Program-made: the position numbers and the translations under genes
Notes under the pieces: generated by a model
Databases searched by the model: none
The model's input: only the letters and a program-made list of their open reading frames with translations
What the model was told of the DNA's origin: nothing
Assembly: GCF_024502345.1 (NCBI RefSeq)
Contig: NZ_JALDNN010000001.1
DNA from: Escherichia coli
GTDB taxonomy: Bacteria > Pseudomonadota > Gammaproteobacteria > Enterobacterales > Enterobacteriaceae
Direction: 5' to 3' (one strand)
Length of the DNA stretch: 64,000 bases
In this document: positions 5,915 to 15,837 of the stretch, piece by piece
How the letters are laid out: every line of letters starts with the position of its first letter
Numbering within the stretch: position 1 is the stretch's first letter

Positions 5915-6238
5915 TTAGAGAAAGACAGGGAAGGCGGAATGATGGCACTGATATGACAAAGTGAATTCCGTATTCAAACATAAGGAACCCGCAAAAAGGC
6001 TACAGTTGCCTACTGGCTGACCAAAGGGGATCGCGTGGGTATAGCCTTCCTGCTGGCATGCGCGATCGGCGATCCCGCGACTGACATAACGATCGGTATG
6101 GGCATGCTGCAAAAAAGCCTGGTTATAAACCAACCGTACAATACCTGTTGCCGCGTCAACTTCGCTCACATGGGCCTGGCGAGTAACCGTACACCCCGCC
6201 AGCGTTATTAATGAAAGAGTCAGAATCAGAAGTCTCAT
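5915..6238 (-). CDS. yecR: Lipoprotein YecR
   Basis: 107 aa; signal peptide with lipobox LAGC; matches K-12 YecR. Confidence 0.9.
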   Translation of the reverse strand: MRLLILTLSLITLAGCTVTRQAHVSEVDAATGIVRLVYNQAFLQHAHTDRYVSRGIADRACQQEGYTHAIPFGQPVGNCSLFAGSLCLNTEFTLSYQCHHSAFPVFL

Positions 6239-6402
6239 GGTCCAGCCAGAAGAGTAAGAGAAAGCACTATTTTACGCGTTACAGCGCTGCGACAATGACC
6301 GGAAAAGACGCCTGGCAGGCGCTATTTCTTGCCATCTGTAGGTGTCAGAAATAGGGGGGCTGTTTTTTGATTATCATTTTTATAACATTAAAGGGGTGTT
6401 TA

Positions 6403-6418
6403 TGTGATTTGTATCACA
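6403..6418. promoter_or_regulatory. CRP binding site upstream of azuC
   Basis: TGTGA-tttgta-TCACA, a perfect TGTGA-N6-TCACA. Confidence 0.7.
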
Positions 6419-6432
6419 TAAAGATTGATTTT

Positions 6433-6448
6433 TGTGATGGTTGTCATA
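6433..6448. promoter_or_regulatory. Second CRP-like site upstream of azuC
   Basis: TGTGA-tggttg-TCATA. Confidence 0.5.
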
Positions 6449-6500
6449 TTATAAGCGCAAAGACAATAACACCTGTATAACAAATGGTCGGAGTGCCGCG

Positions 6501-6587
6501 ATGAAACTGCGCAAAATCCTGAAAAGTATGTTCAATAACTATTGCAAGACGTTCAAAGACGTACCGCCAGGCAATATGTTCCGATAA
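6501..6587 (+). CDS. azuC: Small protein AzuC (28 aa), within the AzuCR dual-function RNA locus
   Basis: atgaaactgcgcaaaatcctg... encodes MKLRKILKSMFNNYCKTFKDVPPGNMFR; below the 60-aa track cutoff; terminator follows immediately. Confidence 0.85.
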   Translation: MKLRKILKSMFNNYCKTFKDVPPGNMFR

Positions 6588-6589
6588 CA

Positions 6590-6616
6590 AAAAACCTGCT
6601 CCGGCAGGTTTTTTTG
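6590..6616 (+). terminator. Rho-independent terminator of azuC
   Basis: cctgctccggcagg hairpin followed by a T7 run. Confidence 0.85.
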
Positions 6617-6701
6617 TGTCCTGATGACGGTGGATGTGACTATCGCTGAAGATGTGAAGCCGCTACTATAACGGCTTTCAAAATGCTATCAGGAGTTTAC
6701 G

Positions 6702-6953
6702 ATGTCCCAGCCGCTGAATGCCGATCAGGAACTGGTTTCTGATGTGGTTGCTTGCCAGTTGGTTATCAAACAAATTCTGGATGTTCTCGATGTAATCGCG
6801 CCCGTTGAAGTTCGCGAAAAAATGTCCAGCCAGCTGAAGAATATCGACTTTACTAACCATCCCGCCGCCGCAGACCCGGTCACCATGCGGGCAATCCAAA
6901 AAGCCATCGCGCTGATTGAACTCAAGTTTACCCCACAAGGCGGATCCCATTAA
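6702..6953 (+). CDS. yecJ: DUF2766 protein YecJ
   Basis: 83 aa matching K-12 YecJ. Confidence 0.9.
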
Positions 6954-14278: not shown

Positions 14279-14707
14279 TTAATCTCCCGTAAGTGGAACT
14301 AACAGCACATCGACCTCACTTGAGGCAATAACTCTTTTCGCCGAGCAGGATGCTCGCGAAAAGAAACTGTGATTGTGATTACCGCAAATCACCAAATCGA
14401 AATGATGCTTGTGACATACTTCCAGAATATGTTCGCTTAACTCACCGTAGGCAATAAACGTCTTGTCAACGGGATACCCCGCATCCTGAATTAACTTATC
14501 AAGAAAGCTTTGCGTTTCTTCCTGCATCACGCTGCGTAAATCTTCAAGCATCGGCGCAGCTAATTGATTGTACATTTCCGGGTCGGAAGCGAGAGTAATT
14601 AAACTGATGTGTCCCTTTACTGGCCTGGCGATAGATACCGCTTTTGCCAGCAGTTGCTGACTTTCCGGTGTAACCGCAACAGCGACAAGAATATTGCTAT
14701 AGCTCAT
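14279..14707 (-). CDS. uspC: Universal stress protein C
   Basis: 142 aa matching K-12 UspC (YecG). Confidence 0.92.
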   Translation of the reverse strand: MSYSNILVAVAVTPESQQLLAKAVSIARPVKGHISLITLASDPEMYNQLAAPMLEDLRSVMQEETQSFLDKLIQDAGYPVDKTFIAYGELSEHILEVCHKHHFDLVICGNHNHSFFSRASCSAKRVIASSEVDVLLVPLTGD

Positions 14708-15209: not shown

Positions 15210-15225
15210 TGTGATCTGCATCACA
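15210..15225. promoter_or_regulatory. CRP site in the flhDC regulatory region
   Basis: TGTGA-tctgca-TCACA, a perfect consensus about 270 nt upstream of the flhD ATG, consistent with the known CRP activation site. Confidence 0.8.
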
Positions 15226-15486: not shown

Positions 15487-15837
15487 ATGCATACCTCCGA
15501 GTTGCTGAAACACATTTATGACATCAACTTGTCATATTTACTACTTGCACAGCGTTTGATTGTTCAGGACAAAGCGTCCGCTATGTTTCGTCTCGGCATA
15601 AATGAAGAAATGGCGACAACGTTAGCGGCACTGACTCTTCCGCAAATGGTTAAGCTGGCAGAAACCAATCAACTGGTTTGTCACTTCCGTTTTGACAGCC
15701 ACCAGACGATTACTCAGTTGACGCAAGATTCCCGCGTTGACGATCTCCAGCAAATTCATACCGGCATCATGCTCTCAACACGCTTGCTGAATGATGTTAA
15801 TCAGCCTGAAGAAGCGCTGCGCAAGAAAAGGGCCTGA
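15487..15837 (+). CDS. flhD: Flagellar master regulator FlhD
   Basis: Start [12 protein letters not shown] gives 116 aa; the track ORF begins 9 nt upstream at GTG. Confidence 0.95.

Follow-up and report, generated by a model that had tools for sequence, protein, structure and literature searches.

The AzuCR RNA of Escherichia coli was first named IS092 or IsrB and described as a small RNA (Raina et al. 2022, PMC8915982). It is 164 nt long, with a transcription start site (TSS) at 1988001, and encodes AzuC, a 28-residue amphipathic membrane-associated protein that binds GlpD and raises its activity; synthesis of AzuC and its interaction with GlpD were established with a SPA tag, ribosome profiling and co-purification of GlpD. 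The same RNA, acting as AzuR, pairs with cadA and galE through bases of the azuC coding region and so represses both. For cadA, the pairing was demonstrated with compensatory mutations and overlaps the coding sequence. As the pairing region lies inside the coding sequence, translation and pairing compete. A further layer is provided by FnrS, which blocks azuC translation anaerobically by pairing, also supported by compensatory mutations (PMC8915982).

AzuC and its RNA are abundant in glucose and scarce in glycerol or galactose owing to repression by CRP, according to the passages of PMC8915982 that cite Hemm et al. 2010. The review PMC12612679, where it cites the same work, also gives CRP repression of azuCR. 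Two CRP sites were predicted by Hemm et al. 2010, as reported by later papers citing it, and may be the pair described below. The yecJ-yecR spacer was the most abundant clone class in a cAMP-CRP genomic SELEX (59 clones), and isrB is among the CRP targets confirmed by that method (Shimada et al. 2011, PMC3105977). Such abundance provides direct evidence, in vitro, that CRP binds the spacer very strongly.

The sequence analysed here, hereafter the window, is a stretch of 64,000 nucleotides of E. coli. The initial annotation, made from the sequence, had reported a 28-residue open reading frame (ORF) between yecR and yecJ, and had correctly named it azuC. The ORF was found at 6501–6587, where RefSeq annotates azuC. 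It had been described as missed by the ORF track, which is correct as regards the 60-residue cut-off of that track, but the gene is present in standard annotation. We estimate the probability that the whole element is the azuCR locus (azuC/azuR, formerly isrB/IS092), repressed by cAMP-CRP, at about 95%. The AzuC peptide matches the NCBIfam equivalog NF033642 with 75.9 bits (cut-off 30, E = 1.3e-21) over the entire profile (1–26 of 26); a profile search of Pfam returned no family for it. The matching region of strain MS8345 carries the RefSeq label "azuC: stress response protein AzuC", and the gene order yecR-azuC-yecJ is common to the window and to the annotations of strain MS8345 and K-12. 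Of 5426 complete E. coli genomes, 5419 contain a match to a region of 451 bp around the ORF; the matching places number 5436, two of them on records labelled as plasmids.

Comparison with the annotated azuC/isrB locus of K-12, which had been proposed as a check, showed that positions 6399–6659 of the window are identical base for base to K-12. This segment covers the promoter, the CRP sites, the RNA, the ORF and the terminator, so that the two are the same locus. Over the 462 bp compared (6240–6701), four single-nucleotide differences were found, at 6285, 6298, 6398 and 6660, none of them inside the unit. The features are collected in Table 1. At 6398, 5 bp upstream of the distal CRP core, the window has G where K-12 and most E. 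coli have A; the change sits within the NarP and PhoP motif positions of Ekdahl et al. 2025. An exact match to the 81 bp at 6360–6440 occurs in 14 of the 5426 complete genomes, for example in O103:H2 STEC strains.

Table 1. Features of the azuCR locus and its flanking genes, in window coordinates.
Feature	Position	Strand	Remarks
yecR	5915–6238	−	Flanking gene; Pfam YecR
NarP motif (Ekdahl)	6384–6400		Just upstream of the distal core; coordinates mapped
PhoP motif (Ekdahl)	6397–6414		Overlaps the distal core; coordinates mapped
FNR motif (Ekdahl)	6402–6421		Coincides with the palindrome of the perfect distal CRP site; coordinates mapped
Distal CRP site	6403–6418	.	TGTGATTTGTATCACA; perfect core TGTGA-N6-TCACA; K-12 1988042–1988057
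−35 hexamer	6425–6430	+	TTGATT; promoter scan; nearly invariant across genera
Proximal CRP site	6433–6448	.	TGTGATGGTTGTCATA; one mismatch
−10 hexamer	6447–6452	+	TATTAT; promoter scan; 16-bp spacer after −35
AzuCR (AzuR / IsrB / IS092) transcript	6459–6617	+	Mapped from K-12 MG1655 ncRNA azuR b4434 (1987843–1988001, 159 nt)
FnrS pairing site	6470–6476	+	CACCTGT; 25–31 nt upstream of the ORF; Raina 2022
Shine-Dalgarno	6490–6493	+	GGAG; 7 nt before ATG; kept across genera
azuC coding sequence	6501–6587	+	ATG at 6501, 28 codons, TAA at 6585–6587; product MKLRKILKSMFNNYCKTFKDVPPGNMFR; RefSeq and K-12 annotation (MG1655 b4663, 1987873–1987959), NF033642, coding signature
Predicted AzuR-cadA seed	6539–6559	+	AzuCR nt 81–101, azuC codons 13–20; windowed duplex prediction
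Terminator hairpin	6589–6615	+	AAAAAACCTGC-TCCG-GCAGGTTTTTTT; folding
yecJ	6702–6953	+	Flanking gene; Pfam DUF2766

Both ends of AzuCR are uncertain by a few nucleotides, the annotated length being 159 nt and that in the literature 164 nt. The uncertainty of the TSS is about 3 nt, as the K-12 coordinate places the ATG at +43 and the paper numbers the coding sequence 40–126 (PMC8915982). A terminator belonging to azuC itself had been claimed, and the hairpin following the stop codon bears this out: its predicted folding energy is −18 kcal/mol (z = −4.5), and none of 200 shuffled sequences folds as well. The unit had been delimited as 6403–6587. All its elements are there, but it runs past 6587, with the terminator and the RNA's 3′ end at about 6615–6617. 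A consensus terminator scan did not call the hairpin, probably since no free T tail is left once the A-run and the T-run pair. Across 55 sequences the hairpin stem hardly varies and forms the sole robust conserved structure in the RNA; beyond it, consensus folding (alifold) gave a 3-bp helix and a short hairpin made mostly of invariant pairs, with no convincing covariation. Searching Rfam 15 produced no AzuCR match, only sub-threshold, terminator-like ones (STnc370, 33.4 bits against a gathering score of 54). The library probably holds no AzuCR model, so that the missing match is no argument against the identity of the RNA.

A perfect and a near-perfect CRP site had been reported ahead of the ORF, and both were recovered, the distal one exact and the proximal one with a single mismatch. 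With the TSS at 6459 they are centred at −48.5 and −18.5; the paper's numbering of the coding sequence gives −51.5 and −21.5. The two sites bracket the −35 hexamer, and the proximal one fills the 16-bp promoter spacer and covers the first two bases of the −10 hexamer. In the 64-kb window, two perfect cores were observed against 0.07 expected, and none of 100 shuffles reached two. When one mismatch was allowed, no window-wide enrichment was found (3 cores against 2.05 expected). From the background rate in the window, the probability of finding a second site within about 60 bp by chance was estimated at about 0.4%. A sigma-70 promoter (6425–6452) drives a transcript of about 160 nt, from 6459 to about 6617, ending at the intrinsic terminator. 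When glucose is absent, cAMP-CRP represses azuCR transcription; in the proposed mechanism, two dimers bind at the two centres. As judged from the positions, CRP on the proximal site would sterically exclude RNA polymerase, and the distal site may add affinity or cooperativity.

One further perfect CRP core occurs in the window, TGTGATCTGCATCACA at 15210–15225, between uspC (14279–14707, − strand) and flhD (ATG at 15487). Its centre lies 269.5 nt upstream of the flhD ATG, a position that presumably fits the known CRP activation site of flhDC, assuming a leader of 198 nt. No IS element was found upstream of flhD in the window, unlike in MG1655. Closer to azuC, the yecR-azuC spacer contains a G+C-rich palindrome, CGCCTGGCAGGCG, at 6309–6321, 71–83 nt upstream of the yecR start codon. 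It gave a terminator-like call on the plus strand; read on the minus strand, it precedes TCTTTTCC. Genomic SELEX with FlhDC is reported to have yielded a peak in this spacer, for which yecR was named as target.

The conservation of the locus was examined in 80 species-level loci of Enterobacteriaceae, with yecJ as an unbiased anchor. In 59 of them the azuC ORF precedes yecJ; these come from Escherichia, the Citrobacter amalonaticus/sedlakii group, Enterobacter, Lelliottia, Kosakonia, Leclercia, Silvania, Pluralibacter, Kluyvera, Huaxiibacter, Pseudescherichia and Pseudenterobacter. In Salmonella, C. koseri, the C. freundii complex, Buttiauxella and Entomohabitans, azuC is missing and other genes occupy its position upstream of yecJ. 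Two CRP-like cores, each with at most two mismatches, precede azuC in 58 of the 59 loci, spanning at least 12 genera, and the centre-to-centre distance is exactly 30 bp in every one of these 58. The 21 azuC-negative loci showed no core with one mismatch or fewer in the 700 bp preceding yecJ. The half-sites have kept their bases (top-base frequency of 0.94 in the distal and 0.99 in the proximal site), and the N6 spacers drift freely (0.58 and 0.68, with 0.52 in the upstream flank). The right half of the proximal site reads TCATA in all 59 azuC loci, and the block TCATATTAT is present in 58 of 60 sequences. The invariant −10 hexamer TATTAT begins with the very T that counts as the mismatch in the proximal site, which is why this site is never perfect. 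The −35 hexamer, a block of the 5′-UTR (TAACACCTGCATAACA), the GGAG and the terminator are conserved between genera as well; the alignment showed no conservation between genera in the stretch from the distal CRP site to yecR. Cross-genus conservation of the CRP sites, their fixed phasing and the −10 origin of the proximal mismatch were not found in the literature on azuCR, as far as it was consulted.

The C terminus of AzuC varies. Most genera have a 27-residue protein ending in PPGAMF; the 28-residue form ending in PPGNMFR occurs in Escherichia and in a Pluralibacter metagenome-assembled genome, and one C. amalonaticus sequence ends in GDMFR. In Escherichia sp. MOD1-EC7003, a natural deletion has removed yecR, the CRP sites and azuC together; what is left of the azuC terminator is a degenerate sequence (AAAAAAACTGTTCCGGCTGGTTTTTT) that borders on ftnA, about 270 bp upstream of yecJ. 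A 212-residue gene (MKIALMMENSQ...) replaces azuC between yecR and yecJ in Salmonella enterica subsp. arizonae and diarizonae and in C. koseri. In the C. freundii complex, a transporter gene of about 457 residues adjoins yecJ.

The FNR consensus is TTGAT-N4-ATCAA, and the distal site, GTGAT-TTGT-ATCAC, agrees with it at 8 of 10 positions. Both mismatches, G in GTGA and C in TCAC, are CRP-type bases at the positions that discriminate CRP sites from FNR sites, and across genera the CRP-type GTGA...TCAC bases of the distal site have a top-base frequency of at least 0.9. These points bear on a recent proposal that FNR, NarP and PhoP are additional repressors of the isrB promoter (Ekdahl et al. 2025, PMC12266141). 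The FNR motif positions given there (U00096.3 1988039–1988055 and 1988042–1988058) map onto the distal palindrome. Mutation of the FNR motif or deletion of fnr relieves repression, an earlier FNR ChIP-seq signal nearby is cited, and the main occupancy changes are placed "further upstream" of the annotated CRP sites (PMC12266141). The NarP region was not conserved between genera in the alignment.

The distal palindrome could accordingly be primarily an FNR operator, for anaerobic repression, or an operator shared by CRP and FNR. The mapped motif, the mutation and fnr data and the partial fit to the consensus speak for this; we regard it as possible but rather doubtful. The discriminating bases are of the CRP type and conserved, the site is one of a phased pair of which the second member is also CRP-type, and the spacer is the top clone of the cAMP-CRP SELEX (PMC3105977). 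As the FNR motif and the CRP core coincide, mutation of the "FNR motif" also destroys the CRP site and does not separate the two regulators. A combined picture, in which a conserved "CRP clamp" of two dimers with 30-bp phasing in at least 12 genera includes a distal palindrome that doubles as an FNR operator, is offered tentatively. If it held, a single DNA element would receive both carbon and oxygen signals, in competition or additively, and the promoter-mutation evidence of 2025 for FNR would be confounded by loss of the CRP site.

Most CRP sites activate, and this general rule would favour a reading in which the pair activates azuCR from class I or class II positions, or else serves the divergent yecR promoter. 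Class I sites lie at −61.5 and further upstream, and class II sites at −41.5. The centres found here fit neither class, which argues against an activating role, as does the overlap of the proximal site with the −10 hexamer. For yecR, the location in a divergent spacer and the first assignment of the SELEX peak to yecJ/yecR (Shimada et al. 2011, PMC3105977) can be invoked. The sites, however, accompany azuC (58 of 59 loci with the gene, 0 of 21 without it); Salmonella and C. koseri keep yecR and have neither azuC nor the sites, and conservation stops at the distal site on the yecR side. Activation of azuCR is also at odds with the published CRP-dependent repression and the higher levels of RNA and protein in glucose, as these are conveyed by the passages cited above. 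Both versions are thus judged very improbable. Repression of azuCR by cAMP-CRP is retained; the catabolite control suggested by the initial annotation is documented in the literature, with the refinement that it acts by repression, giving high expression in glucose, and not by activation.

An ORF of 28 codons is not in itself beyond chance, as 34 ORFs of at least 20 residues overlap a 2-kb stretch at this place. Since its length is weak evidence, it is the cross-species comparison that settles the coding status of azuC. Among 54 distinct orthologous ORFs compared pairwise, the differences per site at codon positions 1, 2 and 3 were 0.051, 0.093 and 0.321. The ratio of synonymous to non-synonymous codon differences was 9327:4755 in the azuC frame, against 948:13427 and 2304:12387 in the frames shifted by +1 and +2, and 792:13290 in antisense frame 0. 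The substitutions show clear coding selection, on the + strand only. Transcription and translation over 6501–6587, the absence of which would have spoken against the gene, are documented by Northern analysis, SPA tagging and ribosome profiling (Raina et al. 2022, PMC8915982). That the RNA is a purely non-coding small RNA with an incidental ORF, as the original description of IS092/IsrB might suggest, or that the real gene is the antisense 48-residue ORF at 6444–6590 (− strand), the frame of which is interrupted by a stop in just 1 of 60 sequences, is next to impossible in view of the lack of synonymous bias in antisense, the conserved GGAG ahead of a conserved start codon and the published detection of the tagged protein and of ribosome footprints. 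The antisense frame is open as a by-product of the sense codon usage of azuC: stops arise in it only from the sense codons TTA, CTA and TCA, which azuC almost never uses, and the single interrupted sequence is probably accounted for by one CTA codon.

The ORF list shows azuC as the 3′ part of a 48-residue ORF with a TTG start (6441–6587). This extension was rejected: its start codon, at 6441, precedes the TSS, and the 5′-UTR alignment contains indels of lengths not divisible by three.

A duplex was predicted between the AzuR seed listed in Table 1 and positions −3 to +19 of cadA, which comprise the ribosome-binding site and start, at −19.6 kcal/mol; adjacent registers gave −17.7 to −21.9 kcal/mol. 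For galE, several candidate duplexes of −22.7 to −24.2 kcal/mol were obtained at different positions, with none standing out. The synonymous sites of the cadA-pairing codons vary freely between genera (orthologous loci L003–L082): all four ACN codons occur at codon 17, and the amino acid differs at codon 16. On this pattern, the AzuR-cadA pairing may be lineage-specific or co-evolving with cadA. The FnrS site lies within the conserved 5′-UTR block TAACACCTGCATAACA and reads CACCTGC in most other genera. The FnrS target, CACCTG(T/C), resembles the 5′ arm of the terminator, AACCTGC (positions compared, 6470–6476 and 6595–6608), and the 3′ arm, GCAGGT, could in principle pair with the 5′ UTR.

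The azuC/azuR locus is already known and well characterised, being annotated in RefSeq, covered by its own NCBIfam model, studied experimentally since 2002–2010 and the subject of a full mechanistic study in 2022; the finding holds but is unremarkable. It serves as a positive control, in that reading the sequence alone recovered a real gene of less than 60 residues together with its regulatory sites. The small additions made here are the comparative footprint with its 30-bp phasing, the origin of the proximal mismatch and the overlap of CRP and FNR motifs. The point for specialists is that the recently assigned FNR motif is physically the distal CRP palindrome.

AzuCR has counterparts among other dual-function RNAs. 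Spot 42/SpfP (spf) of E. coli is also CRP-repressed, is linked to carbon metabolism and encodes a very small protein; its sequence is unrelated, and SpfP (15 residues) acts on CRP itself. VcdRP of Vibrio cholerae is likewise a CRP-repressed dual-function RNA, the protein of which stimulates citrate synthase as AzuC stimulates GlpD (PMC12612679). It differs in coming from another genus, in its length of 306 nt, in its unrelated 29-residue protein and in its dependence on Hfq; moreover, its coding and pairing regions are separate, whereas those of AzuCR overlap (PMC8915982). SgrS/SgrT of E. coli similarly links sugar metabolism to a small protein through a dual-function RNA (PMC8915982), but its regulator is the activator SgrR instead of CRP as repressor, and it codes and pairs through separate regions (PMC8915982, PMC12612679).
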